A stretch of DNA of 62,375 nucleotides, filler included, from Caldilineae bacterium (GTDB lineage: Bacteria; Chloroflexota; Anaerolineae; DTLA01): NCBI GenBank assembly GCA_037446815.1. It is 15 parts of 15 records of this genome, joined end to end, with 100 filler letters (N's around TTAATTAATTAA, not from the genome) between each part and the next. Parts side by side here need not be neighbours in the genome. Positions count along the whole stretch, not along the records: positions 38,884 to 42,769 come from JBBIHX010000217.1; 14 more parts are not named here. One strand, written 5' to 3'. How positions within the stretch are numbered: position 1 is the first letter of the stretch; each line of letters opens with the position of its first letter. Shown piece after piece: positions 30,837-50,943 of the stretch. The notes under the pieces are model-generated. The model searched no databases and was not told the DNA's origin. It saw only the letters and a program-made list of their open reading frames with translations. The translations under genes were made by a program, and so were the position numbers.

Positions 30837-30967
30837 CGCCACGCTGCCCTGAATTCCTCCCCCGGTTCCAGCGGAACCTGTTGTCGGACGAACCAGTCCA
30901 CGTCCACCGAGCTGCTAGCCCCTGCGGTCTGTATCGGTTGAACCGGTTGGCGCGTCAAGTCGTCCAC
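30837..30967 (-). CDS. hypothetical protein, 5' fragment
   Basis: TG-extended TATAAT and GGAGGG upstream of GTG; frame open to the contig end. Confidence 0.5.
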
Positions 30968-31014
30968 AGCGGCACCCTCCGCATGCTTGGACTATTATAC
31001 CACAATCCGCGCGC

Positions 31015-33449: not shown

Positions 33450-33471
33450 CCCTTACCTCCCAATTCTTGCA

Positions 33472-34257
33472 TCAGGGTACACCCAACCCCTTGTGCTCCA
33501 GCGCTGCCCGCGCGATGCGGATGAGGAGCAACTCGCCCGACGCCAGAAGGAACCCCGCCGCGAGCGCCGGCAGCACGTCCCGAAACGCGGAGGCCCGCTC
33601 CTCCCTGCGCGCCAAGACCACCCACAGCGCCGCGTTGACGCCGGTGAACATCAGCGCCATGCCGGCCAGGCTCAGCAGCGAGACCACCGGCAGCAGCCAC
33701 GCCACGCGACTCATCACCGGCAAGGCCGCCCACGCGACCAACGCCAGGCCGATGACCTCGCGGGGGCGGCGCAAGATGGATGCATTGGCCCAGTCGCGCC
33801 ACAGGACGGCGTTGAGCAGCGGGTATCCGAACCCCACCATCGCCATCCCGCTGAAGACGCCCGTCGCGTAGCGCAGCGTGTTGTCGGGCGCGTACAGCCG
33901 CACACCTCCGCCGGTGAGCGCATCCGCGAACGAGTTGCCGCCGTCCAGCGCCATCAGCGCCAGCCCCGCCGCCAGCATCAGCGCCACCGCCCTGGGCGGA
34001 AACGCGCCGGACTTGGCGCGGCCCGTGGCCCAGGCGAAGCCCAGCACGGCCAGCGCCCCGAAGTACGTCCCCGTGCACCGCGCGCACAGCGGGAACGCCG
34101 CGCCGCCAACGGCCAGCGAGTGCTCGGGCCACTGGTGGCAGACGGAATAGCCCACCGCTCTGGCTGCCGCGAGCATGGCGTGGGGAAACGCGAACGCTGC
34201 TGCGATGAGCACTGCCGCGGCCCCGAGGCCGACTCGCCTTGCCATATGCGCCCCCAT
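33472..34257 (-). CDS. DUF2085-like membrane protein
   Basis: VCHQWPEHS and PLCARCTGTYFG, multiple TMs. Confidence 0.8.
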   Translation of the reverse strand: MGAHMARRVGLGAAAVLIAAAFAFPHAMLAAARAVGYSVCHQWPEHSLAVGGAAFPLCARCTGTYFGALAVLGFAWATGRAKSGAFPPRAVALMLAAGLALMALDGGNSFADALTGGGVRLYAPDNTLRYATGVFSGMAMVGFGYPLLNAVLWRDWANASILRRPREVIGLALVAWAALPVMSRVAWLLPVVSLLSLAGMALMFTGVNAALWVVLARREERASAFRDVLPALAAGFLLASGELLLIRIARAALEHKGLGVP

Positions 34258-34317
34258 CCGGATTCAACGCGGACTATTATACTCCAGTCTGCCCCTCGGC
34301 GCGAGTTGGGTAGGGGG

Positions 34318-34647
34318 AATTCGGGTCCGAGGTGCGTCGGCAGCCGCCATTGCGAGGGCGCGGGCGACGCCCTCACCCCAGCCCTCTCCCAGCGGGAGAG
34401 GGAGCCACGCCCTCACCCAACCCTATTCGCGTGGCTTCGCGTTATTGGCGGTTGCACTTCTCCGAAGTTGCTTTATGTCGTGCCGCATTGCGCGCGGCGC
34501 CAAGCCGCGTGGACTGCACCAACACGGTTTGGAACCGAATAAGGGAGACTCGGGTCCGAGGTGCGTCGGCAGCCGCCATTGCGAGGGCGCGGGCGACGCC
34601 CTCACCCCAGCCCTCTCCCAGCGGGAGAGGGAGCCACGCCCTCACCC
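34318..34647. repeat. tandem MITE-like elements containing a 98-bp direct repeat
   Basis: 34321-34418 repeated at 34550-34647; degenerate termini at 34318 and 34547, opposite terminus CCAACACGGTTTGGAACCGAAT at 34519-34540; contains CCCTCACCCCAGCCCTCTCCC..GGGAGAGGG hairpin. Confidence 0.75.
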
Positions 34648-34884
34648 CCGGCCTTCGGCCTGAGAACGAGGGGGAGGTTAGGTGCGAGCCCCTTGAGGTC
34701 TACTCCCATCCGTGCAATCCGCGTTATCCGTGGATGTGGCCGAGCCCTATTCGCGCGGATTCGTGNNNNNNNNNNNNNNNNNNNNNNNNNNNNNNNNNNN
34801 NNNNNNNNNTTAATTAATTAANNNNNNNNNNNNNNNNNNNNNNNNNNNNNNNNNNNNNNNNNNNNCGCAACAACCGAAACCGAA

Positions 34885-35131
34885 CGACGCCGAACAGGAG
34901 GAGTAGGCGCGCGGATGCTGGTAGAGAAGAGGGGTCGTCGGCTGAAAGCCCCTCGCAGCGGAAACCGCCGAAGGTCGCCTGGGAGTCGGGTCGCCGAACC
35001 GCTGTCGGAGTAAGCGGCCCCGGGTTCGCCCGTTACAGCGCCCGAGCGCCAGCGGCCCGTTGCTGCTGGAAGCAAGGTGGTACCACGGAAGATTGCCCCT
35101 TTCGTCCTTGTGGCGAAGGGGGTTCTTGTTT
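34885..35131 (+). promoter_or_regulatory. T-box riboswitch (Val) with intrinsic terminator
   Basis: GGAGTAGG, GCTGAAAG, specifier GAAG-GTC (34974-34976), T-box AAGCAAGGTGGTACCACGG (35070-35088), terminator hairpin plus T-rich tail. Confidence 0.92.
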
Positions 35132-35137
35132 ATCTGG

Positions 35138-35210
35138 AGCAATCAGCCATCAGCAATCAGCGATCAGCCAGCAGTCCGGATTCGCTGACCGCTGACCGCT
35201 GATAGCCGAA
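35138..35210. repeat. heptamer tandem repeats (ATCAGCR / GCTGAYR) in inverted arrangement
   Basis: ATCAGCC ATCAGCA ATCAGCG ATCAGCC then GCTGACC GCTGACC GCTGATA; similar tract at 37968-38022. Confidence 0.65.
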
Positions 35211-35226
35211 TGCCGGAGGTGTCGCG

Positions 35227-37971
35227 ATGAGCCCCAAAGAAATGCCCAAGACCTACGATCCAAGCGCGACGGAGCAGCGCATCTACGAATGGTGGGAGTC
35301 GCGGGGATATTTCCGCCCGCGGATTGACCCGGCCAAGCAGCCGTGGACCATCACCATGCCGCCGCCGAATGTTACCGGCGCGCTGCACTTGGGCCATGCC
35401 ATCACCGCCGCCATTGAGGACCTCATGACCCGGTGGCACCGCATGCGCGGGGAGCCGACGCTGTTCCTCCCCGGCTCGGACCACGCCGGCATCGCCACGC
35501 AGGCCGTGGTGGAGCGCGAACTGGCGAAGCAGGGCATCTCCCGCCACGACCTGGGCCGCGACAAGTTCATTGAGAAGTGCTGGGAGTGGAAGCACATCTA
35601 CCACCGCCGCATCACGGATCAGCACCGCAAACTCGGCGTCTCGTGCGATTGGGAGCGCGAGCGGTTCACCCTGGACGAGGGGCTGTCGCGCGCCGTCCGC
35701 ACCGCCTTTGTGCGCCTGTACGAGCAGGGCCTCATTTATAGGGGCACCTACCTGGTCAACTGGTGTCCGCGATGCACATCGGCCATCTCGGATTTGGAAG
35801 TGGAGCACGAGGAACAGGCGACGAGCCTGTGGTACGTGCGCTACCCGCTGCTCAACGGCGATTGGAGCGGGCCGCACCACGCGTGGGGCAGCGGGCGCTG
35901 GGCCGAGGGCGCGACGGAGTTCATCCAGGTGGCGACGACCCGCCCCGAAACCATCCTGGGCGATACCGCCGTCGCCGTGAACCCCAACGACGAGCGCCAC
36001 GCCGGCCTTATCGGGCGCCAGGCCGTGCTGCCCGCCATCGGGCGCGTGATTCCCATCATCGGCAGCCTCACGGTGGACACGGCTTTCGGCACCGGCGCGG
36101 TGAAGGTAACCCCCGCCCACGACCCGACCGACTACGAGATCGGCCTGCAGCATGGGCTGGATGCGCCCATCGTCATGGACGAGGTAAGCCGCATGAACGA
36201 ACTGGCCGGGCCGTACCAGGGGCAGGATCGTTTTGAGTGCCGCCGCAACTTGGTGGCGGATTTGGAAAAAGAGGGCCTGCTGGTCAAGATTGAGCCGTAC
36301 ACCCACGCCGTGGGCACGTGCCAGCGGTGCCACACGGTCATAGAGCCGCGCATCTCCACGCAGTGGTTCGTGCGCATCAAGCCCCTGGCCGAGCCGGCGC
36401 TTCAGGCTGTCCAGGACGGGCGCATTCGCATTGTTCCGGACCGCTTCGTTAAGATTTACGCCAACTGGATGGAGAACATCCGCGACTGGTGCATTTCGCG
36501 CCAACTGTGGTGGGGCCACCGCATCCCGGTGTGGTACTGCGACGACTGCGGCGCGCAGACGACGGGCCTCACCGACCCGACGGCGTGCGGCACGTGCGGC
36601 AGCAAGAACATCCGCCAGGATCCGGACGTGCTGGACACGTGGTTCTCGTCCGGCCTGTGGCCCTTCTCCACGCTGGGCTGGCCTGACGATACCGAGGACA
36701 TGCGCTACTTCTACCCGACGACGGTGCGCGAGACCGGCTACGACATCCTGTTCTTCTGGGTGGCGCGGGAGATTATGCTGGGCCTGGCGATGACCGGTGA
36801 GGTGCCCTATCGCGTCGTGTATCTGCACGGCCTGGTGCGCAACGCCCAGGGCAAGAAGATTTCCAAATCCATGCCCGACGCCGACAAATACGACCCGCTC
36901 AACGTGATTGACGAGTACGGCGCCGACGCGCTGCGCTTCACGCTGGTTACCGGCAGCACGCCCGGGCAGGATATGAAACTCTCGCCGGAGCGCATCGCGT
37001 CCAACCGCAACTTTGCCAACAAGATTTGGAACGCGGCGCGGTTCGTCCTGTCCAATCTGGACGATGCGCCGCTGCCCTCTGACCCCTGGACGCAGGCGCT
37101 GGAGCCGGTGGATCGGTGGATACTCAGCCGCCACAATCGTCTCATCGCCGAGGTGAACCGTCTGATGGAGGATTACCAGTTCGGCGAGGCGGGCCGCCAA
37201 ATCTATGACTTCCTTTGGGGCGAGTACTGCGACTGGTACATTGAGGCCACCAAGTCGCGCCTTTACGCCGACGGGGAGGGATCAACCGGCGCGAACGCGA
37301 CGGGCCAGGATTCGCGAGCGGCGTCTAGGCGGGCCGCCCTGTCGGTGCTGGTGCACGTGCTGGAACGCTCCCTGCGCCTGCTGCATCCGTTCATGCCATT
37401 CGTAACCGAGGAAATCTGGCAGAACCTGCCCCACGAGGGCGAGGCGCTCATCATCGCGCCGTGGCCCGAACCCGGCCCCCGCGATGAGGACGCCGAGCGC
37501 GAGATGGGCGCGCTGATGGACGCGGTCCGCGCCATCCGCAACGCCCGCGCCGAGTACAACGTGGAGGCGGGCAAGCCGATTGAGGCGCACATCGCGGCCG
37601 GGGCATTCTACGAGACCTTCGCGGCGCAGCGGGATATCCTCATGCGCCTGGCGCGGCTGGACCCGGAGCGGCTGGAACTGGCCCCCGCCCTGGCCCGCCG
37701 ACCCGACAAGGCGCTGGCGCTGGTATTCCCCGGCGTGGAGGTGTACCTGCCGCTGGCGGGGATGGTGGACGTGGACAAGGAGCGCGCCCGCCTGGCGAAG
37801 GAGTTGGAGCGGGTTGGGGCCGACATCGCCCGCTCGGAGAAACTGCTGGCCAACGAGGGGTTCATCCGCAAGGCGCCCGAGGACGTGGTGGAAGAGGAAC
37901 GGGAGAAACTGGCCGCGCTGCAGGACCGCAAGGCGCGCCTGGAAGAGCAGGTGCGGGTGCTGGGGGGATAG
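35227..37971 (+). CDS. valS: valine--tRNA ligase
   Basis: PPPNVTGALHLGH, ATTRPET, DWCISRQLWWGHRIP, DVLDTWFSS, KISKS, C-terminal coiled coil. Confidence 0.97.
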   Translation: MSPKEMPKTYDPSATEQRIYEWWESRGYFRPRIDPAKQPWTITMPPPNVTGALHLGHAITAAIEDLMTRWHRMRGEPTLFLPGSDHAGIATQAVVERELAKQGISRHDLGRDKFIEKCWEWKHIYHRRITDQHRKLGVSCDWERERFTLDEGLSRAVRTAFVRLYEQGLIYRGTYLVNWCPRCTSAISDLEVEHEEQATSLWYVRYPLLNGDWSGPHHAWGSGRWAEGATEFIQVATTRPETILGDTAVAVNPNDERHAGLIGRQAVLPAIGRVIPIIGSLTVDTAFGTGAVKVTPAHDPTDYEIGLQHGLDAPIVMDEVSRMNELAGPYQGQDRFECRRNLVADLEKEGLLVKIEPYTHAVGTCQRCHTVIEPRISTQWFVRIKPLAEPALQAVQDGRIRIVPDRFVKIYANWMENIRDWCISRQLWWGHRIPVWYCDDCGAQTTGLTDPTACGTCGSKNIRQDPDVLDTWFSSGLWPFSTLGWPDDTEDMRYFYPTTVRETGYDILFFWVAREIMLGLAMTGEVPYRVVYLHGLVRNAQGKKISKSMPDADKYDPLNVIDEYGADALRFTLVTGSTPGQDMKLSPERIASNRNFANKIWNAARFVLSNLDDAPLPSDPWTQALEPVDRWILSRHNRLIAEVNRLMEDYQFGEAGRQIYDFLWGEYCDWYIEATKSRLYADGEGSTGANATGQDSRAASRRAALSVLVHVLERSLRLLHPFMPFVTEEIWQNLPHEGEALIIAPWPEPGPRDEDAEREMGALMDAVRAIRNARAEYNVEAGKPIEAHIAAGAFYETFAAQRDILMRLARLDPERLELAPALARRPDKALALVFPGVEVYLPLAGMVDVDKERARLAKELERVGADIARSEKLLANEGFIRKAPEDVVEEEREKLAALQDRKARLEEQVRVLGG

Positions 37972-38035
37972 CCGTCGGCTGACAGGGAACAGCGGTCGGC
38001 GATCAGCGATCGGTAATCAGCGGGCGGATGTGCAA

Positions 38036-38608
38036 TTACGGCGCGGGTTGCGTAGGCGAGTCGTCTTCGGCGGCTTCGTCTGCCGCGGCGGGGCGGGCAG
38101 GTTGCTTGGGCCTGTCCAACCCGCGCCACGCCATGATGAGCAGAATCGGCGTCAGCACGTACACGATGAGGTTGACGTACTGATCGCATAGGTTGGCCGT
38201 CCACGGGAAGCCGCGCACGCGGAAGAAGTCGGTGGCGTGGCCGCGCAGGAGAATCTCCACAGGGTTGCTGAGCGCGCCGACGAGAAGCGTCGTCATGAGG
38301 AGCACCACCTTGCGCGCCGGCGCGGTCGGGTCCATCTGGGCGGCCCAGCGCAGCAGATACACGACCATCCCGGCCGCGAGCAGCAGGGATGCCCCCGCAA
38401 TCCATCGGTACGGCCCCAGCGCCCCGAAGATGTAATGATACCCCTCGTTGTAACTCAAGTACCAGGAAATGAACGGGATGGGCGAAGGAATCGGCTCGGC
38501 TCCGAAGACGAGCGATCGCTCGGCCACGGCCTTGGCCGCCCAGTCCAGGGCGAATAGGGCGATGCCGATGCCGATGACTGCGATGCGTTCCAGTGTTCGT
38601 TTGCTCAT
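38036..38608 (-). CDS. divergent signal peptidase II (LspA-like)
   Basis: ALDWAAK, YNEG, GALSN, ATDFF, ANLCD; four TMs; ATG 38608. Confidence 0.7.
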   Translation of the reverse strand: MSKRTLERIAVIGIGIALFALDWAAKAVAERSLVFGAEPIPSPIPFISWYLSYNEGYHYIFGALGPYRWIAGASLLLAAGMVVYLLRWAAQMDPTAPARKVVLLMTTLLVGALSNPVEILLRGHATDFFRVRGFPWTANLCDQYVNLIVYVLTPILLIMAWRGLDRPKQPARPAAADEAAEDDSPTQPAP

Positions 38609-38995
38609 GTCTGCCTCTCGCGATGATTGCGCCCTACAATACCCGAAAACGCGCCGCATGACAAAACGGCGCGTGGCGCAATGACGGCACCGCAGAGACA
38701 GAGCAGGCACAGAGTTTCCTCTGTGTTTCCCGCGACGAGTGTTAGCCCTGCGCGGCCGTGCTCCCTCTCCCGGCGGGCGAGGGNNNNNNNNNNNNNNNNN
38801 NNNNNNNNNNNNNNNNNNNNNNNNNNNTTAATTAATTAANNNNNNNNNNNNNNNNNNNNNNNNNNNNNNNNNNNNNNNNNNNNGCTACACCGCCGGCAAC
38901 TTCGGGGCATACATCCGAAATGGCGACGCAGTCTGGGACAGCCTGGAGGCGCGAGCGCTGCCGTAGCAAACGTTCGACGCACCTCCAGACGTGAT

Positions 38996-39949
38996 TCACA
39001 CGCCCGCGCAGCAGGCCACGCTGACCCGATGCGCGGGCGACTGCCCCGCCAGGACGCGCAACACCTCGCGCGCAACCTCCATGCCGACCCGCGCCCTAGC
39101 CTCGGCTGTGGAGCCGCCGATGTGCGGCGTCAGGATCACCCGCCGATCCGCCAGGAGCCGCCGATTGGTGGGAGGCTCCCGCGCAAACACATCCAGCGCC
39201 GCGCCCGCCACCTTCCCCTCCGCCAGCGCGTCGGCCAGCGCCTCCTCATCCAGCACCTCCCCGCGGGCGCAGTTGACGATTCGGCAGCCCGGCTTGACCA
39301 AAGCCAGCGCCTCCCTACCCACCAGGCGATGCGTTGAGGGAGTGGCCGGCACGTGGATGGAGATGAAGTCCGCCCTTGCCAGCAGCGCCTCCAGCGGCAG
39401 CAGCGGAACCCCCAGCGCCGAGGCCCGTTGCGGCGCGACAAACGGGTCTGTCGCGATCACGGTCATCCCCAGGGCCAGCGCCCGCCGCGCCACCTCCATC
39501 CCAACACAGCCCAGCCCGATGATGCCTAGAACCTTGCCGTACAACTCCACGCCCTCAAACTCGCCGCGCCGCCATTCGCCCGCTCGCACACTGGCATCGG
39601 CCTGGGGAATGTGCCGGGCCAGGGCGAGCATCAGCCCCAGGGTGTGCTCCGCGACAGCGATGGCATTGGCGCCGGGCGTGTTGACGACCAGGATGCCCCG
39701 GCGCTCCGCTTCCGCCACGTCTATGTTGTCCACGCCGCTGCCGGCCCGCGCGATGAGCCGCAGGCGTTCCGCGCGCCGCAGTACCTCGCGGCAGACCCGC
39801 GTCTGGCTGCGCACGATGAGCGCATCGTAGTCGCCGATGATGGCGCGCAACTGCTCGCCGCGGCAACCGTCGCGGACGTCCACCTGATGGCAGGCGCGCA
39901 ACAGGGCCACCGCCTCGGGCGATAGGGTCTCGGTAATCAGGATTCGCAT
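38996..39949 (-). CDS. serA: D-3-phosphoglycerate dehydrogenase-like, short form lacking ASB/ACT domains
   Basis: YDALIVRSQT, RAGSGVDNID, NTPGANAIAVAEH, GIIGLG, NCARG, LDVFAREP, TPHIGGST; ATG 39949. Confidence 0.8.
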   Translation of the reverse strand: MRILITETLSPEAVALLRACHQVDVRDGCRGEQLRAIIGDYDALIVRSQTRVCREVLRRAERLRLIARAGSGVDNIDVAEAERRGILVVNTPGANAIAVAEHTLGLMLALARHIPQADASVRAGEWRRGEFEGVELYGKVLGIIGLGCVGMEVARRALALGMTVIATDPFVAPQRASALGVPLLPLEALLARADFISIHVPATPSTHRLVGREALALVKPGCRIVNCARGEVLDEEALADALAEGKVAGAALDVFAREPPTNRRLLADRRVILTPHIGGSTAEARARVGMEVAREVLRVLAGQSPAHRVSVACCAGV

Positions 39950-39954
39950 CGCGC

Positions 39955-41034
39955 TCACCCCCTCGCATCGGCCAAAGCGGACTCCACGGCTGCCAGCGCC
40001 TCGCGGATGTCCGCCACGTGCACCCAGCCCATGTGGGCCAGGCGAATGGTGCGGTCTGGCTCGTGCCCCGCCGCCAGCACCACGTTGTACCGCTCGGCCA
40101 GCACGCGAATCAGAAGGTGGGCCGAGACCCCATCGGGAACCCACGCCGCGGTTACGCTGGGGGACGCGCACGCATCCGCCGCCACTGGCCGGAAACCTAG
40201 GCAAGCCAGCCCCTGGCGAGTTATGCGCGCCAGTTCGCGATGGCGGGCGAATGCCGCATCCAGCCCCTCGGCCATCAGCGCGCGCAGGCCCGCGTGCAGC
40301 CCGCGGATGACGCTGATGGCGGGCGTGAACGGGGTCTCGTTCCGTTCAGCCCAGCGGCGCGCCTCCCGCAAATCCCAGTAGAAGCGGGGCATCCGCGCCT
40401 CTGCCACAGCGGCCCATCCGCGCGGACTCACCGAGAGGAGCGCCAGCCCAGGCGGCCCCATCAGCGCCTTCTGCGACGCCGCTACCACCACGTCGCAGCC
40501 CCATGCATCCACCTGCATGGGCATCGCTCCGACCGAACTCACGCCGTCCACCAACACCAGGACATCGGGCGACACATCGCGGGCAGCGCGGACAAGGGTC
40601 GGAACATCGTTCACGACGCCGGTGGACGTCTCGTTGTGGGTCAGGAGCAGGGCTTTCGCGTCAGGCGCGGCCCGCAGCGCAGCCGCAACAGCCCGAGCGT
40701 CGGCCGCCTGCCCTGGGGGAAATTCTACCAGCGTAACTTGCGCGCCGAAGGCTCTCGCGATGGCCGCAAACCGCCGGCCGAATACCCCCACGCTCACGGC
40801 CACCACCCTGTCGCCCGGCGATAGCGTGTTGACCAGCGCCGCCTCCAGGCCCCCGGTGCCCGAAGCCGTGAGGAGAATCACGTCGCCGCTCGTGCCAAAC
40901 GCCGCCCTCAGCGGCGGCTGAATCTCCTCCATGAGGCGATGGAACTCGCCGCCGCGGTGGTTGATCATAGGCTCCGCCATGGCCTCGCGGACGGCCGGCG
41001 GCAAAGGCGTGGGGCCGGGTACTCGCAGGTTCAT
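39955..41034 (-). CDS. class V aminotransferase (serine-pyruvate / SerC-type)
   Basis: LRVPGPTP, INHRG, SGTGGLEA, HNETSTGV, VDGVSS, ASQKALMGPPG, TPFTPA; ATG 41034. Confidence 0.9.
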   Translation of the reverse strand: MNLRVPGPTPLPPAVREAMAEPMINHRGGEFHRLMEEIQPPLRAAFGTSGDVILLTASGTGGLEAALVNTLSPGDRVVAVSVGVFGRRFAAIARAFGAQVTLVEFPPGQAADARAVAAALRAAPDAKALLLTHNETSTGVVNDVPTLVRAARDVSPDVLVLVDGVSSVGAMPMQVDAWGCDVVVAASQKALMGPPGLALLSVSPRGWAAVAEARMPRFYWDLREARRWAERNETPFTPAISVIRGLHAGLRALMAEGLDAAFARHRELARITRQGLACLGFRPVAADACASPSVTAAWVPDGVSAHLLIRVLAERYNVVLAAGHEPDRTIRLAHMGWVHVADIREALAAVESALADARG

Positions 41035-41042
41035 ACGCCACC

Positions 41043-42410
41043 TCACGACTCGCGCGGCACTTGGGGAAGCACTTGGAGCGCCTCGCGCACCTTCTCCTCG
41101 GGATAGGCGTAGTCCTGGAGGCGGCCCGCCAGGTACTCGTCATAGGCGGCCATGTCAAAGTGCCCGTGCCCGCTCAGGTTGAACAAGATGGTGCGACGGA
41201 CCCCTTCCTCCCTGCACCGGATGGCCTCGTCCACCGCGGCGCGAATGGCGTGGGCCGACTCGGGCGCCGGCACGATGCCCTCGGTGCGGGCGAACTGAAC
41301 GGCCGCTTCAAAGACCGCCGTCTGCGGATAGGCCACCGGCTGGACGACCCCCGCCTGCACCAGCACCGACAACGCCGGCGCCACGCCGTGATACCGCAGT
41401 CCCCCCGCGTGGATGCCCACCGGCACAAACGTGTGGCCCAGGGTGAACATCTTGATCAGCGGCGTCAGGCCCACGCTGTCGCCGAAGTCGTAGGCGCACA
41501 CGCCCTTTGTCATGGACGGGCACGCCGTCGGCTCCACGGCCACGAATCGGGTGTTCAACCCTCGGGTCAGGCCCTCCCGGATGAAGGGGAACGCCAGGCC
41601 GGCGAAGTTGGACCCGCCGCCGACACACCCGATGACGATATCGGGATAATCGTCCGCGAGCGCCATCTGCGCCAGGGCCTCCTCGCCGATAATCGTCTGG
41701 TGCAGCAAGACGTGGTTGAGCACGCTCCCGAGGGCGTACTTCGTGTCGGGATGCTGCGCGGCCACCTCCACCGCCTCGCTGATGGCAATCCCCAGACTGC
41801 CGGGCGAATCGGGGTTCTGGGCCAGCACCTGCCGCCCCGCGTTGGTTTCGCTGCTGGGGCTGGGCGTAACTTCCGCGCCCCAGGTCTGCATGAGCGACCG
41901 ACGGTAGGGCTTCTGCTGGTAACTGACCTTGACCATGTAGACCTTGCATTCCAGCCCGAACAGGCGACAGGCAAGGGCCAGGGCGCTGCCCCACTGCCCT
42001 GCGCCGGTTTCCGTGGTGAGCCTGCGCACGCCTTCCGCTTTGTTGTAGTAGGCCTGGGCAACCGCAGTGTTGGGCTTATGACTTCCTGCCGGACTCACAG
42101 ACTCGTTCTTGAAGTAGATTCGGGCAGGCGTCTGCAGCGCACGCTCCAGGTTCCGCGCCCGCACCAGCGGCGTGGGCCGCCACAGTCGGTACACGCGGCG
42201 CACCTCGTCCGGTATCTCCACGTACCGGTCGGCGCTCACCTCCTGCGCGATGAGCGCCATGGGGAACAGCGGGGCCAGGTCGTCGGGGCCGATGGGCTTG
42301 CCGGTGGCCGGATGAAGCACGGGCGGCAGCGGCTGCGGAAGGTCGGGGAGGATGTTGTACCACGTGTTGGGCATGTCGCGCTCGCCGAGCATGATTTTGA
42401 CCTCTTCCAT
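41043..42410 (-). CDS. trpB2: TrpB2-type tryptophan synthase beta
   Basis: [67 protein letters not shown] 42410 after AGGAGG. Confidence 0.95.
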
Positions 42411-42459
42411 TGTGCACCTCCTGTGAAGTTTGGGATTGGGCCGGAGTTCCAACTGTCCG

Positions 42460-42769
42460 AGAAAAAGCAAAAGGCCCTCGCCGAGGGGCGAGAGCCTTTT
42501 CAACCCGTGGTGCCACCCTCGTTAGGCCGGAAAATGAAAAATCCGCCGTGATGGCGGATGATTCAAAAGCCAGCCTCACTCATGCGCAGGTACGGGAGAC
42601 GAACGTCGTCTCCGATACCCTCCGCTCAGGTAACGGTAGCGGTCTCCGTCCGCGTCTACTCGTCCGCGCCATGGGCGGACTTTCGGGCGGCGGCTCCCAG
42701 GTCCATTCGGTGTCTGCCAGGACATCGGCTTCGCACCACCCGCCGACTCTCTGCGTCCCGCTTGGACAC
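42460..42769 (-). promoter_or_regulatory. T-box riboswitch (Trp), 5' end cut by the contig break
   Basis: specifier GAA-TGG (42705-42703), AGTA and CCGTTA motifs, T-box AACGAGGGTGGCACCACGG (42523-42505), terminator plus T-run. Confidence 0.9.
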
Positions 42770-42869
42770 NNNNNNNNNNNNNNNNNNNNNNNNNNNNNNN
42801 NNNNNNNNNNNNNTTAATTAATTAANNNNNNNNNNNNNNNNNNNNNNNNNNNNNNNNNNNNNNNNNNNN

Positions 42870-42989
42870 TGCTGAGCCGAAGGCGGTACGCCCTCGCCCT
42901 TCGGGAGAGGGCTGGGGTGAGGGGTGAGATTCTTCGCGGCTTCGCCGCTCAGAATGACGGTAGATGCCAACAGACTTTGGAACCGACTC
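42870..42989. mobile_element. MITE terminus with REP-like cargo, partial
   Basis: CCAACAGACTTTGGAACCGACTC at 42967-42989. Confidence 0.7.
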
Positions 42990-43047
42990 CTGGATTGCTG
43001 AAGTCCTACTATCTTTGCGGATTGTACTTTCACGTGGGCAAGAACAC

Positions 43048-43126
43048 ACCGCAGAGAACACACCGCCGAAACCCAGAGGGCGCAGAGTTTAGACTGTTCT
43101 CTGCGTTCTCTGGGTCTCCACGGTGA
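43048..43126. repeat. CACCGCAGAG...CTCTGCG..CGGTG imperfect hairpin repeat
   Basis: related intergenic hairpins at ~18144-18207, 24048-24105, 38688-38735. Confidence 0.55.
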
Positions 43127-43297
43127 GTTTGGGCCATTGTCTTGCCGTCCACGCGCCAGGGGGAGACGCCCCCAAAGCAGGGGGCAGAAAAAAGTCTGCG
43201 GTCGGGGCGCGAACCCGACCGCAGACGTGTCTCTGGGCATCACGGTCTAGCGCTAGAGTAGAGAGGGAAGGGTCTGATAGGCTCCAGGGTAGTGCCT

Positions 43298-44017
43298 TTA
43301 GGCCGCGCCTTTGCCCGAGAGGACGGCAGGTATCGTCTGGAGCAGGATGCGCAGGTCCATCCCCAAGGAGCGGTCCTCCGCATACTCGATGTCCCACCTC
43401 ACCATCTCATCGAAGGTTACACTGCTCCGACCCTTGACCTGCCATAACCCCGTGATGCCCGGGGTGACCAACAACCTCCTCTTGTGCCACTCTTTATATT
43501 GTTCAACTTCATAGGGGATGGCGGGCCTGGGACCGACCAGGCTCATGTCCCCTTTGATCACATTGATCAACTGCGGCAGTTCGTCCAGGCTGGTCTTGCG
43601 GATGAACCGGCCCACTCGCGTTACCCGGCGGTCCGAAGCCAGTTTGTACACGGCCCTGCCGTTCGCGTCCTTGTGCAGCGTGCCGTTGCCGTTGATGAAG
43701 TCGGCCATGAATTTCTGGTGCACGCTGCTGTCCGCTTGGTGGTACATGGAGCGGAACTTGTAAAATGTGAACAGGATGGGCTTGCCATCGGGGCCGAGGC
43801 CCTTCACGCGCTGCTGCTTGAAAAGCACAGGCCCGGGCGAATCCAATTTGATGGCCAATCCCACCACCAGCATCAGCGGCGCTGCCAGGATCAGGGCGAT
43901 GCTGGCGATGACAACGTCCAGTATGCGCTTCGTTACCAGATACAGACGGTGGCTCAGGCTCTCCTGTACCCGCAGCAAATACACAGATTGGCTACTACGA
44001 GTGAACTCCATTGCCAT
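43298..44017 (-). CDS. priming sugar transferase (Bac_transf, WcaJ/PglC-like)
   Basis: KRILDV, DSPGPVLFKQQR, YKFRSM, RKTSLDELPQL, MSLVGPRP, PGITGLWQV. Confidence 0.93.
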   Translation of the reverse strand: MAMEFTRSSQSVYLLRVQESLSHRLYLVTKRILDVVIASIALILAAPLMLVVGLAIKLDSPGPVLFKQQRVKGLGPDGKPILFTFYKFRSMYHQADSSVHQKFMADFINGNGTLHKDANGRAVYKLASDRRVTRVGRFIRKTSLDELPQLINVIKGDMSLVGPRPAIPYEVEQYKEWHKRRLLVTPGITGLWQVKGRSSVTFDEMVRWDIEYAEDRSLGMDLRILLQTIPAVLSGKGAA

Positions 44018-44165
44018 GTGCTGCCCGCTCCTCACCTTCTTCCACGCAAAGTATAGCATCCAAAGATGAAATCTTGATGACAATCGGTCTGTCTCCAGAT
44101 GACAATTCGTTCATCTGGGCGTCTGGGGTAAGGGCGGATGCAAGTGGGGTGCCAACCGGGGCGAA

Positions 44166-45404
44166 TCAGAATCCGTAGGCCCGCTCCAGCAAGGGCACGA
44201 TGCGGCTCCAGTCGTAGCGCGACACGGCGAACTCGCGGGCGAGGGCGCCGAGTTGCTCGCGACGGGCCGGGTCGCGCAGGAGCGCCACGGTCTCATCGGC
44301 GAACCGCGCCGCGTCGTCGGCCACGACGATTTCGCGGCCGGGCGTCAGGCCGTACCCCTCGCATCCCAGCGAGGTGGACACGACGGCCTTGCCCATGGTC
44401 ATGGCCTCCAGCACCTTGAGCCGCGTGCCGCCGCCCATGCGCATGGGCACTACGTACACGTCGGCGGCGGCGATGTAGGGGCGCACGTCGGGGACGAATC
44501 CCGTAACGGTGATGCCGGGCCTGCTTCCCAGGGCCTGCACCGCCGGCGCGGGGCGCTGCCCCACGATGTACAGGTGCGCATCGGGCACGTGCGCCCGAAC
44601 GCGGGGGAGAATGGCGTCGACGAACCAGCAGACGGCGTCCACGTTGGGGCGGAAGTCCATCTTGCCCGTGAACACCAGTTTCGGGCCTGGGGTATCAGCG
44701 GTGGGGCCTTGTCCTTCCGCCGCGTAGTTCACGTAGGAACTCGCGTCTATGCCGTTGGGCACCACGCAGACGTTGGCGCCGGGCGCAAGGCGCGCCAGGG
44801 CGTCGCGATCCCACTCGGAGACGGCCACGACGCAGTCGGCCAGGCGACACACCTGCCGCTCGTACCGCGCCAGCCGCCGCCACTGGACGAACGAGTACGC
44901 CGCCGCCACCCATCGGCGGGGATGGCCAAGGTCCGTCTCAAACGCCCGCCTCTGCAGCAGGTACTCGGCGTTCAGGTCGTCAAAGAGGATGCGGGGCCGA
45001 CGCGGCAGGTTCGCCCGCAAGGCGGCCAAGGCATAGGGAGCCATCTCTATGCTTTCCACGTGCAGGACGCTGTACTCGCCCTGCGCGAGGGCGCGGAGCA
45101 CCGCCCCGGCGAAGGCGGGCGAGTAGGCGCGGAGCGCCATATCGGGCAGGCGCGTGGTGAGGAGCGCGCGCAGCCGCTGGGCGCGGGTGCGGGTCGGCGC
45201 GGGCAGGACGACCACGGTTTCGCAGACCTGGCGCAGAGCCGTCGCGTGTTGGGCCGCATCGGGGCTGGATGACAGCGAGTACAAATCCACCCGACACCGG
45301 TCGCGCAGGCCCGCCAGGAGATTGTAGGCGCGGATGGCCATGCCCTGGTGCGGCGGGTAGGGCAGTTCCGATGTGAGAAACAGGACGCGGGGGCGTTCGC
45401 TCAC
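44166..45404 (-). CDS. GT4 family glycosyltransferase
   Basis: LPYPPHQG, VPNGID, FTGKMDFRPN, GGGTRLKVLEAM; GTG 45404 overlapping the upstream stop. Confidence 0.9.
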   Translation of the reverse strand: MSERPRVLFLTSELPYPPHQGMAIRAYNLLAGLRDRCRVDLYSLSSSPDAAQHATALRQVCETVVVLPAPTRTRAQRLRALLTTRLPDMALRAYSPAFAGAVLRALAQGEYSVLHVESIEMAPYALAALRANLPRRPRILFDDLNAEYLLQRRAFETDLGHPRRWVAAAYSFVQWRRLARYERQVCRLADCVVAVSEWDRDALARLAPGANVCVVPNGIDASSYVNYAAEGQGPTADTPGPKLVFTGKMDFRPNVDAVCWFVDAILPRVRAHVPDAHLYIVGQRPAPAVQALGSRPGITVTGFVPDVRPYIAAADVYVVPMRMGGGTRLKVLEAMTMGKAVVSTSLGCEGYGLTPGREIVVADDAARFADETVALLRDPARREQLGALAREFAVSRYDWSRIVPLLERAYGF

Positions 45405-46513
45405 GTCTGGCTCATCACCTCGTGATAGACTTCCAGCGTCTCGCGCGCCGCCTTTTCCCACGAGAAGCAGGCCGCGCGCGCCAGGCCCTTGGCCCGCATC
45501 TCTTCGCGCAGACGAGCGTCGCTGAGCACCCGCCACATGGCCACGGCAATGGCTTCGGCATCGCGCGGCGGCACCAGGATGCCCGCATCACCCACCACCT
45601 CGGGCAGGGACGACACGTTGGACACGATGACCGGCGTCCCGCAGGCCATGGCCTCCAGTGCCGGCAGGCCGAATCCCTCGTAGAACGACGGCATGACCAG
45701 CATGCGCGCAGCGTTGTAGAGATACAGGAGGTCTTCCGGCGGGACCTGCTGCAGGAACACGACGTCCTTCTCCAAGCGCAGGCGCTCCACCGCCTTCAGC
45801 GAGTCATCCACCAGCCAACCCAACTTGCCCACGACCACCAACTTGGCCGTGCTCGCGTAGCGGTCCAGGAGCAACCGAAACGCCTCAAACAGGGTCGGCA
45901 GGTTCTTGCGAGGCTCTATGGTGCTGACAAAGAGGATGAATTCCTCCGAGATGCCATAGCGCTGGCGGACCGCTTCCATGGCCTGCTGGTCGTCAACGGG
46001 ACGGAACAGCGGGTTGGCGGCCTCGTAGATGACCGAGATTTTGGACTCGGACACGCCCAGCAATCGCTGCAAGTCCTCGGATGTGCTCTGCGACACGGCG
46101 ATAATGTGATCGGTGTTGCGCACGGCCACGTCAATCTGGCCGTAGTAGTTGGCGCTTTCACGGGTCATGAACTGGGGAAACAGGAGAAACGCCAGGTCGT
46201 GCACGGTGATGACCGACAGGCAGTTGCGGCGAAACGGCGGGATGAAATCCGGGCTGTGGAGAAGGTCCAGCCGCAACCCGCGTATCTCCAGCGGAAGCGT
46301 CAACTGCTCCAGGCGGTGGTGGCTCGGCGTCCAGGTGGGGTGGCGGCGGAAGTTCGGGCGCCGAACGAACGATGCCTTGTTCCGGCGATCCTGAAGGATG
46401 ACATATTCGTTGTTGGTGTCCAGGTTGGCGAGTTGCGAGACCAGATGGATGATGTATTGCGCGATGCCCGCTTGGGTGTAGTGCACCAGGCGCGCGTCAA
46501 TCCCAATTCGCAT
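45401..46513 (-). CDS. GT4 family glycosyltransferase
   Basis: MRIGIDAR, TVHDL, IEPRKN, PSFYEGFGLPALEAMACG. Confidence 0.93.
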   Translation of the reverse strand: MRIGIDARLVHYTQAGIAQYIIHLVSQLANLDTNNEYVILQDRRNKASFVRRPNFRRHPTWTPSHHRLEQLTLPLEIRGLRLDLLHSPDFIPPFRRNCLSVITVHDLAFLLFPQFMTRESANYYGQIDVAVRNTDHIIAVSQSTSEDLQRLLGVSESKISVIYEAANPLFRPVDDQQAMEAVRQRYGISEEFILFVSTIEPRKNLPTLFEAFRLLLDRYASTAKLVVVGKLGWLVDDSLKAVERLRLEKDVVFLQQVPPEDLLYLYNAARMLVMPSFYEGFGLPALEAMACGTPVIVSNVSSLPEVVGDAGILVPPRDAEAIAVAMWRVLSDARLREEMRAKGLARAACFSWEKAARETLEVYHEVMSQT

Positions 46514-46636
46514 GAGCGATTCTCTCCCTGACGGTGGATGTTTCGGCGACTCACCCTTCCGCTCAGGACGGAAGGCCAGGGATCAAATCGGGCAACGTCG
46601 GCCGTCTGACCCTCTCGTGGCGTCTTCGCGCAGGGT

Positions 46637-46665
46637 ATGATACCAGCATGGGGTGTTTCCGTCAA
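46637..46665 (-). promoter_or_regulatory. sigma70-type promoter of the glycosyltransferase operon
   Basis: minus strand TTGACG-17 bp-TATCAT. Confidence 0.6.
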
Positions 46666-46833
46666 ACGCGGCGGGGGCACGTGGAGGCCGCGCCGAGAAC
46701 GTGCGTCGCACGGTGTCCCCTCCTGTCATGCTGNNNNNNNNNNNNNNNNNNNNNNNNNNNNNNNNNNNNNNNNNNNNTTAATTAATTAANNNNNNNNNNN
46801 NNNNNNNNNNNNNNNNNNNNNNNNNNNNNNNNN

Positions 46834-47357
46834 ATTGGCTGCACGTCGTGGGCGAGGTGTTCAACAACACGACCGACGACCTCTGGCTGGTGGATGTCCC
46901 TATCGCATTCTACGACGGCAGCGGGCGGCTCATCACCACAGACATGGGATGGGTGTTGCTGGATGACTTGCCTGCGGGGGAGACGGCCTGCTTCCACGTC
47001 CTTCTTCCAAACCCGGCGGGGTGGGTGTACTACGAGTTCGGTCAGCCCAGCGGCCTGCCAGACGGGGAGAAGTGGCCGAACCTGGCGTTTCTGTCACACA
47101 CCGGATCTGTGGACGCCTCTGGCTGGTACCACATCAGGGGGCAGGTGCGCAACGACCACGGCTCCACCGTAGAGTGGGTGCAGGTGGCGGGGACGCTGTA
47201 CGACGCTCAGGGGATCGTGGTGGGGTGCGAGTCGGCCTTCACAGACCCGCAGGACCTCAACCCATCGCAGGTCGGCGCTTTTGACGTCCCGTTTTTTGGG
47301 CGCGACTACTCGGACGTCGCGTCGTACAAACTCCAGGCGGATGGCGAGCCCCAGTAG
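46834..47357 (+). CDS. FxLYD-domain protein, 3' fragment with two repeats
   Basis: VVGEVFNNT...AFYDGSG and IRGQVRND...GTLYDAQG. Confidence 0.75.
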
Positions 47358-47462
47358 GCGCGCCCGCCATTCGCCACAAGTTCGGCATGCGCTCCGAGCC
47401 ACGTCCGGCCCTCCGGGCGTGGCTTTTTCGCGGGAAGTGCGTTATTCTGTGGTGTCTGGCGT

Positions 47463-47491
47463 TTGACAGACTGCTGTCTGTAGGCTAAACT
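47463..47491 (+). promoter_or_regulatory. sigma70-type promoter with overlapping inverted repeat
   Basis: TTGACA-17 bp-TAAACT; ACAGAC-TGCT-GTCTGT at 47466-47481. Confidence 0.65.
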
Positions 47492-47503
47492 GACCGCGGG
47501 AGG

Positions 47504-49816
47504 ATGCGGATTCCCATGAACAACTTGGCCCCTATCCATCGGCGCCGATGGGTGAAGGTCGGCGCTTTTGTTTGCACCTGGCTTGCACTGGCCATCGTTG
47601 CCGCAGCCACTGTCTTCGCCGCCGTGGAGAGACTTCCCATCTCCCGCGTTGCCGAGCAGGGCGAGACGGGCATTGTGGGCACGGTCGTGCGCCTTGCGCC
47701 CCACTGGAACGCCGAGCACACCCTCATCGTAACGACGGTTACGGTGCGCGTGGAGCACGTTCTGAAGGGCGACGCAGGGCAAATTGGCAATTTGCCCTAC
47801 GAGTACTCGTTTGACATCCCGGGCGGCGAGGTGGACGGCCTGGCGCTGGGCGTCTCCGACGTGGCCTCGTTTGCCGAGGGCGATCGCGTCATCCTGTTCC
47901 TCGCCGACACCGACCTGCGCACCGTGGGCGGGTTCCAGGGGCGCTTCTGGCTGGACGGCGGGCGCGTGTGTCGCGAGGACCTCGCGCCCATGCCCCTGCG
48001 CGACTTCCTGGCCGAGATCGCCAACGCGCCGGGCGTCCGCATCCCCGACGCGTTGTGGGCCGAGGCCGAGGCCGCGCCTGCTGCCATCGGCCCGGCGGCC
48101 GCCGCGCCGCTCATCACGAGCCTGTCGCCCTCGTCCGGCCCGGCGCACCAGGATTATCTGCGCTCCTCGGGCAGCGGCTGCGCGGTAACGTCCACCCTCG
48201 TTACCATCAGCGGCTCCAACTTCGGCGCCACGCAGGGGACGGGCCGGGTGGAGTTCCTGCAGGCGGGGACGAACCGCGTGCAGGGGTGCGTCCTGTCCTG
48301 GTCCGACTCGCAGATTCGGGTGCGGGTACCGGGCGGCGCGTCGTCGGGGCCGGTTCGGGTGGTAACCTCGGGCGGCGTGAGCAACAGCGTCAACTTCACC
48401 GTAACCTACTCCTACGCGGGCGGCAAGTGGGAGAAGGGTTCCTACCCCCAGCCCATGCCGTCGTCCTACTACATCAACCCGAACACGGCGGACACAGCGG
48501 ACGAGATGAGCGCGGTCCTGGCGGCCATGAGCACATGGAACAACGTGGCCGAGGCGGATTTCTTCTTCCGCAACGGGGGGACGACCACGAAGGCAGACAG
48601 GGCAAGTGATGGCGAGAATGTCATCTCGTGGGTGAATCGGGATACGGGCTCCATCGCAACGAACTACTACTGGTGGTACACCTCGGACCCCAGCCATATC
48701 ATAGAGTCCGACATCGTGTTCAACGATGTGAACTACGACTGGAGCACAGACGGCAGCGCGGGGACCATGGACGTGCAGAACATCGCCACCCACGAGTTGG
48801 GCCACTCGCTGGTGCTGCTGGACCTATACGGCTCTGCCGATACGCACAAGACCCTGTACGGATACGCCAGCCTCGGCGAGACCAAGAAGCGCTCGCTGGA
48901 AGCCGAGGACCGGGCGGCCATCGCCTACGTGTACCCCGCGGCCGTTACGCCAACGCCGACCCTGACACCCACCCCAACGCCCACGCGCACCCCGACGGCC
49001 ACTCGGACGCCGACCCGCACGGCCACTCGGACGCCGACGCGCACGCCCACGCGGACGGTTACCCGAACTCCGACGCCGACGGCGACCCAGACCTACACGC
49101 CGCGACCTACCAACACGCCCGGCCCGTCGCCCACGTGGGTGCCTGGGGCGCAGGCGCGGCTGTGGTTGCCGGTCATCTTCCAGCAGTGGGCCGCGCCCGA
49201 GCCGCCCACGCCGACCCCAACGGCTAGCGCGACGCGGACGCCAACCCGCACGCCCACGCAGACGGCCACGCCCACCGCTACCCAGACCCCGACGCCGTCG
49301 CTGGTGGAATTGTCGCGGGATAACGGCGCGGCGCACTACTACAATGCGGGCTACAAGGCCGGGGACGCGGTGGGCATCGTGCTGGAAGCGCCGGCAGGGT
49401 TGTACCCGATTCGCCCCGCGTCCATGCGGGTGCTGTTGTTGCCCGTCGGCGGCAGCAGCAGCGTGGTGGTGCGGCCGCAAATCTACGCCATGAGCGGCGG
49501 GGCGCCAGGGGTGCTCCTCGCCGAGGGCGCCCCGCAGACGGTGAGCACGTTCTACCCGAACTGGGCCGAGGTAGACCTGTCGGGGATGGGCCTTGTGCTG
49601 CTCACGCCGCAGCCGGTGCTGGTGGTCGTCCGGTACGAAAGCGGCACGGTCGGAACGACGGCCTCTGTGCTCACGGACTACTCGTCGCTTATCCCCATGG
49701 GGGCGAACTTCTACGATCGGGGATTGGGCTGGGAGGAGCATTATTCGTTCTGGGAAGACGCCTGGGATGTGGGGTACAACATGATTCGCCTGGTGGTGCA
49801 GACGAACCTGTGGTAG
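47504..49816 (+). CDS. secreted zinc metallopeptidase-like protein (pro-region, IPT/TIG, matrixin-like, TP linkers, C-terminal beta domain)
   Basis: signal/TM; VTISGSNFG...SWSDSQIRVRVP; ESDIVFN...DVQNIATHELGHSL. Confidence 0.8.
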   Translation: MRIPMNNLAPIHRRRWVKVGAFVCTWLALAIVAAATVFAAVERLPISRVAEQGETGIVGTVVRLAPHWNAEHTLIVTTVTVRVEHVLKGDAGQIGNLPYEYSFDIPGGEVDGLALGVSDVASFAEGDRVILFLADTDLRTVGGFQGRFWLDGGRVCREDLAPMPLRDFLAEIANAPGVRIPDALWAEAEAAPAAIGPAAAAPLITSLSPSSGPAHQDYLRSSGSGCAVTSTLVTISGSNFGATQGTGRVEFLQAGTNRVQGCVLSWSDSQIRVRVPGGASSGPVRVVTSGGVSNSVNFTVTYSYAGGKWEKGSYPQPMPSSYYINPNTADTADEMSAVLAAMSTWNNVAEADFFFRNGGTTTKADRASDGENVISWVNRDTGSIATNYYWWYTSDPSHIIESDIVFNDVNYDWSTDGSAGTMDVQNIATHELGHSLVLLDLYGSADTHKTLYGYASLGETKKRSLEAEDRAAIAYVYPAAVTPTPTLTPTPTPTRTPTATRTPTRTATRTPTRTPTRTVTRTPTPTATQTYTPRPTNTPGPSPTWVPGAQARLWLPVIFQQWAAPEPPTPTPTASATRTPTRTPTQTATPTATQTPTPSLVELSRDNGAAHYYNAGYKAGDAVGIVLEAPAGLYPIRPASMRVLLLPVGGSSSVVVRPQIYAMSGGAPGVLLAEGAPQTVSTFYPNWAEVDLSGMGLVLLTPQPVLVVVRYESGTVGTTASVLTDYSSLIPMGANFYDRGLGWEEHYSFWEDAWDVGYNMIRLVVQTNLW

Positions 49817-49899
49817 AGGCAAGATGCGACGCACCTCGCGGGCGCGTCGCATCTTGTGGGGCGGGGCTTCCCTCCCGCCGGGCGAGCGGGCGCCTTAAT

Positions 49900-50914: not shown

Positions 50915-50943
50915 TTGACGTTTATACAGGCGGAGAGTATACT
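50915..50943 (+). promoter_or_regulatory. sigma70 promoter of the sugar aminotransferase operon
   Basis: TTGACG-17 bp-TATACT. Confidence 0.7.

Follow-up and report, generated by a model that had tools for sequence, protein, structure and literature searches.

We describe here an operon of a Caldilineae bacterium (Chloroflexota; GenBank assembly GCA_037446815.1) in which a tryptophan (Trp)-specific T-box leader precedes trpB2, a class V aminotransferase gene and the gene of a short D-3-phosphoglycerate dehydrogenase (PGDH; SerA). It occupies one entire 3,886-bp contig, at positions 38884..42769 of the 62,375-nucleotide stretch of DNA that was analysed (hereafter referred to as the window), and all operon features lie on the minus strand (Table 1). 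With a probability of about 0.6, we read it as a Trp-starvation-induced operon that would couple an indole-consuming TrpB2 to phosphoserine synthesis from 3-phosphoglycerate. The leader would act by transcription attenuation and would read tRNA-Trp through its UGG specifier, uncharged tRNA-Trp allowing the antiterminator to form and RNA polymerase to enter the three-gene operon. The short SerA would oxidise 3-phosphoglycerate to 3-phosphohydroxypyruvate, the AGXT-type aminotransferase, replacing a missing classical SerC, would make O-phospho-L-serine, and TrpB2 would join the latter with indole to give Trp. The indole would come from outside the cell, in which case the operon would make Trp by indole salvage and be induced when Trp runs short.

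A preliminary description of the contig had listed a three-gene unit containing neither trpA nor serB, and every element of that list is present. The genes are separated by gaps of 8 nt (trpB2/aminotransferase) and 5 nt (aminotransferase/dehydrogenase), the contig shows neither a promoter-like site nor a strong internal terminator, and the three genes are probably co-transcribed. Only 112 nt of contig remain beyond the dehydrogenase gene. Relatives were taken from two sets. A first fetch comprised 80 loci around trpB2 relatives, from species-representative genomes. A class sample comprised 151 genomes of the class (Chloroflexota) to which one triad-bearing genome, G001, belongs (completeness of at least 80% requested; actual values not shown), and 129 trpB2 loci were taken from it for leader analysis. 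Triads (trpB2, aminotransferase and serA together) were counted by tblastn; an open reading frame (ORF) chain-walk based on length and third-position GC content (GC3) had fused the aminotransferase and dehydrogenase of one locus (L002) into a single 908-aa ORF. Statements on genome-wide gene content rest on the genomes of relatives, which the source genome presumably resembles, and not on that genome itself.

The gene families of the operon are near certain. The product of trpB2, so identified in the preliminary description, exceeds the cut-offs of both TrpB2 models (TIGR01415, 667.3 bits versus 518.85; NF009057, 748.7 bits versus 366) and obtains only 160 bits from the TrpB1 model (cut-off 392). 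Among solved structures, the TrpB2s 6HUL, 4QYS and 6HTE match it best (412–472 bits), and it has in common with all three the sequence GGLRYHG, where the TrpB1 structure 5EY5 has AGLDYPG. The Asp-to-Arg change in this GL(D/R)Y motif presumably underlies the preference of TrpB2 for phosphoserine. By comparison with known TrpB2 enzymes, which include those of Thermotoga maritima and Sulfolobus and on which the literature includes Hettwer and Sterner 2002 and Busch et al. 2014, the window gene shares an operon with genes that would supply its presumed co-substrate; unlike known TrpB2s, it is also the only TrpB homologue in most of the relatives' genomes. Use of, or preference for, O-phospho-L-serine by TrpB2 enzymes is stated in the accessible portion of PMC11917138, with reference to Busch et al. 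2014, and high indole affinity together with O-phosphoserine use is reported in that portion and in the corresponding part of PMC11535334. The latter also describes a Bacteroides TrpB2 that let an Escherichia coli trpA mutant grow on indole cross-fed by wild-type cells. Phosphoserine, rather than serine, is probably the coupling metabolite handed to TrpB2 here.

The dehydrogenase matches the PGDH model TIGR01327 with 406.4 bits over model positions 1–311 of 525, short of the full-length cut-off of 454. It consists of the catalytic and NAD domains only, both PF19304 (the PGDH intervening domain, ASB) and ACT domains being absent. A glyoxylate reductase model gives it 245 bits. Its top 12 PDB matches are all PGDHs, led by those of Mycobacterium tuberculosis (291 bits), human (PHGDH, 278 bits) and Pyrococcus horikoshii (244 bits), with glyoxylate reductases at 220 bits or less. 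The stretches VRS, RAG-G-DN-D, ARG, D-F-EP and TPH-G-ST, which we take to hold the phosphate-binding and catalytic residues of PGDH, are shared with the mycobacterial enzyme. The SerA-like dehydrogenase without ASB or ACT domains of the preliminary description is thereby upheld, and it lies closest to proven PGDHs. The protein is, on these matches and on the tree described below, a SerA core orthologous to full-length SerA.

At syntenic positions, SerA is full length (523–549 aa, with PF19304) in seven loci (L001, L002, L003, L019, L025, L042 and L080) and short (307–309 aa) in two (L016 and L020). A quick IQ-TREE maximum-likelihood tree of 68 catalytic cores, with midpoint root and the SH-like approximate likelihood ratio test (SH-aLRT) as its sole support measure, places the window protein in a short-form clade with those of G134, G053 and G096 (SH-aLRT 98), sister (99) to the full-length trpB2-linked SerA of L002. 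Another trpB2-linked group of short forms (G103, L016, G016, G004 and G061; 100) nests among full-length SerAs (96). Mapped onto this tree, the short form requires six changes, at least four of which are forced by well-supported branches. SerA thus appears to have shed its regulatory domains several times, on two or more occasions inside trpB2 operons. Short PGDHs without regulatory domains, of which PDB entries 1WWK and 2EKL are among the matches, likewise have about 300–330 aa and substrate-binding and NAD domains; we take these to be the 'type III' enzymes. In contrast to a single old short lineage, the window SerA derives, on the quick tree, from full-length trpB2-linked SerAs of its own class. 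All seven short-form triads of the class sample occur in genomes without trpA. The missing ACT domain suggests that the short SerA would be insensitive to serine.

The aminotransferase scores 114.5 bits against PF00266 (gathering score 21.5), in agreement with the class V identity first given to it. Among named families, BhcA matches it best (286 bits; cut-off 650), and all named subfamilies stay below cut-off. Nor does it reach the classical SerC models TIGR01364, TIGR01366 and NF003764 (44.7 bits versus 401.65; 24.8 versus 253), such that it does not, by these models, belong to the SerC family, and we limit the claim to a SerC-like function. The best PDB matches are P. horikoshii 2DR1, annotated as a "serine aminotransferase" (192 bits), and the Arabidopsis serine-glyoxylate aminotransferase 6PK1 (183 bits). 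Classical serC was over cut-off in none of the five triad genomes tested for it (G001–G005); in four of the five, the operon aminotransferase is the best weak SerC match, and its paralogues elsewhere in these genomes are only 34–38% identical to it.

Orthologues of the aminotransferase (E ≤ 1e-70) are present in 40 of the 151 class-sample genomes: 18 in triads, 6 beside serA without trpB2, 6 beside trpB2 without serA and 10 unlinked. Thus 30 of 40 adjoin trpB2 and/or serA and, because the orthologues pair with serA, with trpB2 or with both, all three pairwise links between the genes are seen. We consider the protein a candidate non-canonical phosphoserine transaminase that would act on phosphohydroxypyruvate. 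Precedents for transaminases of this kind outside SerC are sll1559 of Synechocystis, as given in the accessible text of PMC9997740, and SerC2 and SerC3, of which SerC3 was verified in complementation experiments according to the consulted part of PMC13759103; no paper that links MJ0959 with phosphoserine aminotransferase was found in the literature examined. The serC-serA(-SerBK/DUF1015) serine operons described in that part of PMC13759103 likewise set a transaminase beside serA as a phosphoserine module, with the non-canonical SerC2 and SerC3 replacing SerC; the window aminotransferase is likened to these by function only. The module described here differs from those operons in being headed by trpB2 and a Trp T-box, and DUF1015 was found in none of the 20 triad genomes introduced below.

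The T-box reading is near certain. A permissive scan of the 1.1-kb stretch 42200..43300 with RF00230, the test that the preliminary description had in view, did give a match, at 42481..42788 on the minus strand (44.5 bits, E = 2.6e-8), although at less than the gathering score of 93 bits; an Rfam scan at gathering score gives no T-box. The low score is explained by the contig edge at 42769, which shortens the 5′ strand of Stem I by about 33 nt, as seen on aligning the leader with those of L114, L108 and L117. Missing are the K-turn, the 5′ strand of the lower helix and the AGUA side of the specifier loop; retained are the upper Stem I, the AG bulge and distal loop, the 3′ half of the specifier loop, the Stem III region, the antiterminator and the terminator. 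In the closest relative (L114), the leader is complete, near-identical to that of the window, scores 94.8 bits and is preceded by a promoter-like site, TTGACA-17-TATACT. Complete homologous leaders of relatives score 93.5–117.9 bits (93.5–116.7 bits in the seven triad leaders other than L114), and the gathering score was reached by 8 of the 20 loci scanned, that is, 18 triads and the trpB2-serA loci L101 and L119.

The covariance model (CM) alignment sets the UGG specifier within GAA-UGG-A at 42708..42702, directly 5′ of the lower Stem I helix. Downstream, a terminator hairpin of 14 bp followed by a U run (42500..42469) competes with the 3′ arm of the antiterminator. A T-box motif lies within 700 nt upstream of trpB2 at 55 of the 129 class-sample loci, 52 of which also carry GAAUGG(A/G) further upstream; of the 55 UGGN bulges, 47 read UGGC and 8 read UGGU. 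RNAalifold, applied to 52 Stem I regions (51 relatives and the partial copy of the window), found 22 pairs, 20 with compensatory changes, and a covarying 4-bp helix immediately after GAAUGGR, one pair of which is AU in 27, CG in 12, GC in 10 and UA in 2. The leaders of the 51 relatives were chosen by GAAUGGR, so that the invariance of this motif is built in, and the covariation around it is not. CM alignment and covarying Stem I together fix the UGG specifier, and with it the Trp specificity originally proposed; the proposed UGGC bulge of the antiterminator is also present, and it would base-pair with the acceptor end of the tRNA (discriminator base and CCA). A probable counterpart of Stem III is a 7-bp hairpin with a U run, terminator-like in look, which lies inside the leader at 42541..42559 (minus strand), upstream of the antiterminator, and is kept in L114, L108 and L117.

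In Firmicutes and Chloroflexi, Trp-specific T-box leaders stand in front of trp operons and of trpS. The window leader resembles such leaders (RF00230) in its Stem I with UGG, AG bulge, UGGN bulge and terminator/antiterminator switch. It differs from them in the genes regulated, which are trpB2 and two phosphoserine-pathway genes and no other trp gene. In the relatives' loci L006, L037 and L078, the gene after trpB2 codes for a class I W/Y tRNA synthetase with the size of a TrpRS and is interpreted as trpS; in L078, the same leader heads trpB2-trpS-trpE. In L001 and L025, a T-box motif (a motif match and not an Rfam match at gathering score) lies ahead of trpS-trpB2-aminotransferase-serA. The association of trpS with trpB2 at these five loci fits the Trp specificity of the T-box.

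No tRNA-Trp gene was found by aragorn across the fetched loci and the window. A pairing of tRNA-Trp with the T-box was considered and dropped, the tRNA upstream of the T-box in five loci being tRNA-Lys(CTT). This tRNA lies directly upstream of the Trp T-box in one triad sub-clade, at L081 473..548, L085 4421..4494, L086 4548..4621, L090 6241..6316 and L020 6585..6658. Locus L004 has two back-to-back T-box leaders, 6184..6499 (minus strand; 112.2 bits) and 6659..6897 (plus strand; 98.3 bits), one of which heads trpB2 while the other faces its divergent neighbour.

The arrangement of T-box, trpB2, aminotransferase and serA that the preliminary description had seen on one contig recurs in relatives. 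Among the 80 first-fetch loci, seven carry the full triad (L001, L002, L003, L016, L019, L020 and L025), and partial sets occur as trpB2 and aminotransferase up to the contig end (L004), trpB2-aminotransferase (L032) and trpB2-dehydrogenase (L021, L042 and L080). In the class sample, trpB2 is present in 126 of the 151 genomes, trpA in 82 and trpB1 in 80; 68 genomes have both trpB2 and trpA, 58 trpB2 without trpA, 14 trpA without trpB2, and 11 neither. The triad was found in 18 of the 126 trpB2-bearing genomes, 13 without and 5 with trpA, which amounts to a modest enrichment in trpA-less genomes (13/58 versus 5/68, Fisher p = 0.02). A T-box motif precedes every one of the 20 non-redundant triads for which 200 nt or more of upstream sequence is available; in 18 it stands immediately ahead of trpB2 and in 2 ahead of trpS. 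The genes that follow trpB2 are otherwise varied, no other partner recurring as often as the triad genes. A Pfam match to the mini-serine-kinase (ParB/Srx) was found neither among 115 downstream ORFs (E ≤ 1e-8) nor among 43 (E ≤ 1e-4), a search that covers ORFs with a Pfam match. No description of the T-box-trpB2-aminotransferase-serA arrangement was found in the literature examined; Busch et al. 2014, outside that check, may discuss gene neighbourhoods.

The nearest relative of the window genome, G134, has an aminotransferase 85% and a dehydrogenase 88% identical to those of the operon. At its counterpart locus, L114, an IclR-family regulator gene (4251..5318, plus strand) follows the short serA on the same strand. 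The sequence after serA differs between the window and L114, and the downstream border of the operon is therefore not conserved. Other neighbours of trpB2 were observed outside the triads. In L027 (513..3483), the order is T-box (117.9 bits), trpB2 and an ApgM-type gene of the cofactor-independent phosphoglycerate mutase family (PF10143, PF01676), after which the contig ends. The available part of the GapMind 2026 paper (PMC13759103) presents HomK relatives of this family as phosphotransferases that may use phosphoserine, and the L027 gene could be another link between trpB2 and a phospho-metabolite. A gene with POR_N and TPP_enzyme_C domains, indolepyruvate:ferredoxin oxidoreductase alpha-like, is a further recurring indole-related neighbour, found after trpB2 in deltaproteobacterial and some Chloroflexota loci (L061, L064, L067, L068, L072, L021, L094, L187 and L198). 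In L137 (G062), a tryptophan 2,3-dioxygenase gene (PF03301; 3603..4523, minus strand) lies directly after trpB2.

Gene content was analysed in 20 triad genomes (G001–G005 and 15 more). In 15 of them, nearest relatives included, trpE, trpC, trpA and trpB1 are all missing: each of the four was found in none of G001–G005, and trpC and trpE in none of 10 further trpA-less triad genomes. The same trp models match 13 or 14 of 14 control genomes. Of the five trpA-bearing triad genomes, four have trpC and trpE and hence all four genes. The absence of trpE, trpC, trpA and trpB1 from the nearest relatives is our reason for placing the source of indole outside the cell, and the indole salvage suggested at the outset has gained support from these genomes. 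A trpD-like gene (TIGR01245, 355–397 bits, over cut-off) is kept in four of five genomes (G001:C38, G002:C44, G003:C242 and G004:C3) although these lack the other four genes. In G120 (C1 and C4, large contigs), trpA, trpB1 and the triad are present and neither trpE nor trpC was found.

For the serine genes, the picture departs from the first proposal of a dedicated phosphoserine supply that the operon would own. In each of the 20 triad genomes, the trpB2-linked dehydrogenase ranks first among PGDH matches. No other match passes the cut-off in the 13 genomes in which it is full length, and of the seven short-form genomes, five (G134, G053, G096, G016 and G061) have no other match at E ≤ 1e-60. 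Together with the absence of classical serC over cut-off from the five genomes tested, this removes the notion of a private supply: the linked serA and aminotransferase are, as far as sequence models can tell, the only recognisable phosphoserine-pathway genes of these relatives and not spare copies. The arrangement is stranger than a private supply would be, since the serine-pathway genes answer to tRNA-Trp, and the phosphoserine pathway itself would in this lineage sit behind trpB2. In none of the 20 genomes was SerB over its cut-off of 144 bits.

Several observations weigh against a coupling of TrpB2 to phosphoserine synthesis as outlined above. The nearest characterised relatives of the aminotransferase use serine, glyoxylate or pyruvate and not phosphorylated substrates. 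Five of the 18 class-sample triads lie in genomes with trpA and trpB1, four of which also have trpE and trpC; as some triads thus occur in Trp prototrophs, the operon is not tied to auxotrophy and is better seen as a TrpB2/phosphoserine module retained by auxotrophs than as a device evolved for auxotrophy. Short PGDHs are common across the class, also at sites away from trpB2 (full-length SerA is over cut-off in 86 of 151 genomes, and 46 others have only the short form), so that the short form is no mark of the trpB2 operon, and its interpretation as an adaptation special to the operon is not supported. All relatives are metagenome-assembled genomes, in which any single gene absence is weak; the joint absence pattern is not weak, the trpA-bearing genomes serving as internal positives. 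The linked serA, the only good PGDH of these genomes, may simply belong to the housekeeping serine pathway, and a HAD protein that reaches 88–107 bits with the SerB model in 8 of the 20 triad genomes could dephosphorylate phosphoserine.

The main rival is a housekeeping serine operon that lies behind trpB2 and is expressed by read-through or from an internal promoter, its aminotransferase and SerA providing phosphoserine for serine synthesis in general, with a non-canonical phosphatase for the last step; the T-box would chiefly tune trpB2, which would draw on the general phosphoserine/serine pool. The rank of the linked gene as best PGDH throughout, and as the sole one at E ≤ 1e-60 in the five short-form genomes named above, suits this view, as do the aminotransferase-serA pairs without trpB2 in 6 of 40 genomes and the sub-threshold SerB candidates, which are HAD-IB-like. 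We nevertheless consider it unlikely, because the gaps between the genes are short, with neither a promoter-like site nor a strong internal terminator on the contig, and because the T-box motif stands ahead of all 20 assessable triads. The aminotransferase also pairs with trpB2 in the absence of serA in as many genomes (6 of 40), neither SerB over cut-off nor DUF1015 was found in any of the 20 triad genomes, and the regulatory domains of SerA appear to have been shed at least twice within trpB2-linked clades.

Were the pathway non-phosphorylated, a hydroxypyruvate/glyoxylate reductase and a serine:pyruvate or serine:glyoxylate transaminase would supply L-serine, which TrpB2 would use. The aminotransferase does match BhcA-type and serine-glyoxylate/serine-pyruvate aminotransferases best, and glyoxylate reductases form the second tier of dehydrogenase matches. 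This route is nonetheless improbable in view of the margin between the PGDH and glyoxylate reductase models (406 versus 245 bits), the 12 PGDHs at the top of the PDB matches, and the syntenic orthologues that carry the PGDH-specific PF19304 and group with the dehydrogenase in the tree. The aminotransferase, moreover, is far below cut-off for every named family (286 versus 650 bits, for example), and TrpB2 enzymes are reported to prefer phosphoserine in the portion of PMC11917138 cited above. A very improbable alternative is that the genes work in the catabolic direction, from serine or phosphoserine to 3-phosphoglycerate, or that TrpB2 serves something other than Trp synthesis, the grouping then serving serine disposal. 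A serC-serA(-SerBK) set has been proposed for serine utilisation in Bacteroides (PMC13759103, in the part consulted), but induction by uncharged tRNA-Trp suits Trp synthesis and not serine disposal, the DUF1015-type serine kinase was found in none of the 20 triad genomes, and trpS shares the operon in L001 and L025.

Beyond the starvation-induced coupling of TrpB2 to phosphoserine synthesis, we put forward a wider reading only tentatively. A large share of the Chloroflexota class may be obligate indole cross-feeders that depend on TrpB2, one sub-lineage of which would have captured the phosphoserine pathway behind trpB2, mainly for Trp. It builds on the 58 of 151 genomes with trpB2 and without trpA, and on the 15 of 15 trpA-less triad genomes tested that lack trpE, trpC and trpB1. 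In the captured pathway, the serine-sensing domains of SerA would have been shed on at least two occasions, and the phosphoserine generator would be switched on under Trp starvation.

Table 1 Features of the operon contig, in window coordinates
Feature	Position	Strand	Basis or remark
T-box leader	42411..42769	-	RF00230; 5′ end cut by contig edge
Specifier codon UGG (Trp) in GAA-UGG-A	42703..42705	-	CM alignment and RNAalifold
T-box sequence with UGGC bulge (42515..42512)	42506..42518	-	CM alignment
Intrinsic terminator, 14-bp stem, 4-nt loop, U run	42459..42500	-	5′ arm overlaps antiterminator 3′ arm
trpB2, 455 aa	41043..42410	-	TIGR01415, NF009057
Class V (AGXT-type) aminotransferase, 359 aa	39955..41034	-	PF00266
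Short D-3-phosphoglycerate dehydrogenase, 317 aa	38996..39949	-	TIGR01327 positions 1-311
Possible 3′ end of convergent gene, 26 codons and stop	38886..38966	+	Too short to identify

The window as a whole (1..62375) consists of 16 pieces, ordered by decreasing size from 4,505 down to 3,785 bp. The pieces are joined by gaps of 100 N at 4506, 9083, 13556, 16340, 17994, 22309, 26606, 30737, 34766, 38784, 42770, 46734, 50665, 54582 and 58491, and all but one of the gaps contain a 12-base all-frame stop linker. As separate contigs are joined in this manner, features on either side of a gap are not genomic neighbours. A match to bacterial 16S rRNA at 25702..26760 (plus strand; 901 bits) spans model positions 1–1533 in only 1,059 bases; because it crosses the joint 26606..26705, it represents a partial gene at a contig end that was bridged by the aligner.

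The cellular role of stand-alone TrpB2 has been debated since its discovery, its preference for O-phosphoserine in vitro having found little backing in physiology. The operon sets TrpB2 under a Trp-starvation switch, beside two enzymes presumed to make phosphoserine and mostly in genomes without another route to Trp. It lends genomic support to phosphoserine-dependent indole salvage and makes this idea experimentally testable, and the few non-SerC phosphoserine transaminases gain a candidate in its aminotransferase. The pattern suggests that many uncultured Anaerolineae-type bacteria rely on indole from their neighbours, a dependence that would bear on their culturing and on how amino-acid exchange is modelled for the communities of sediments, groundwater and digesters.

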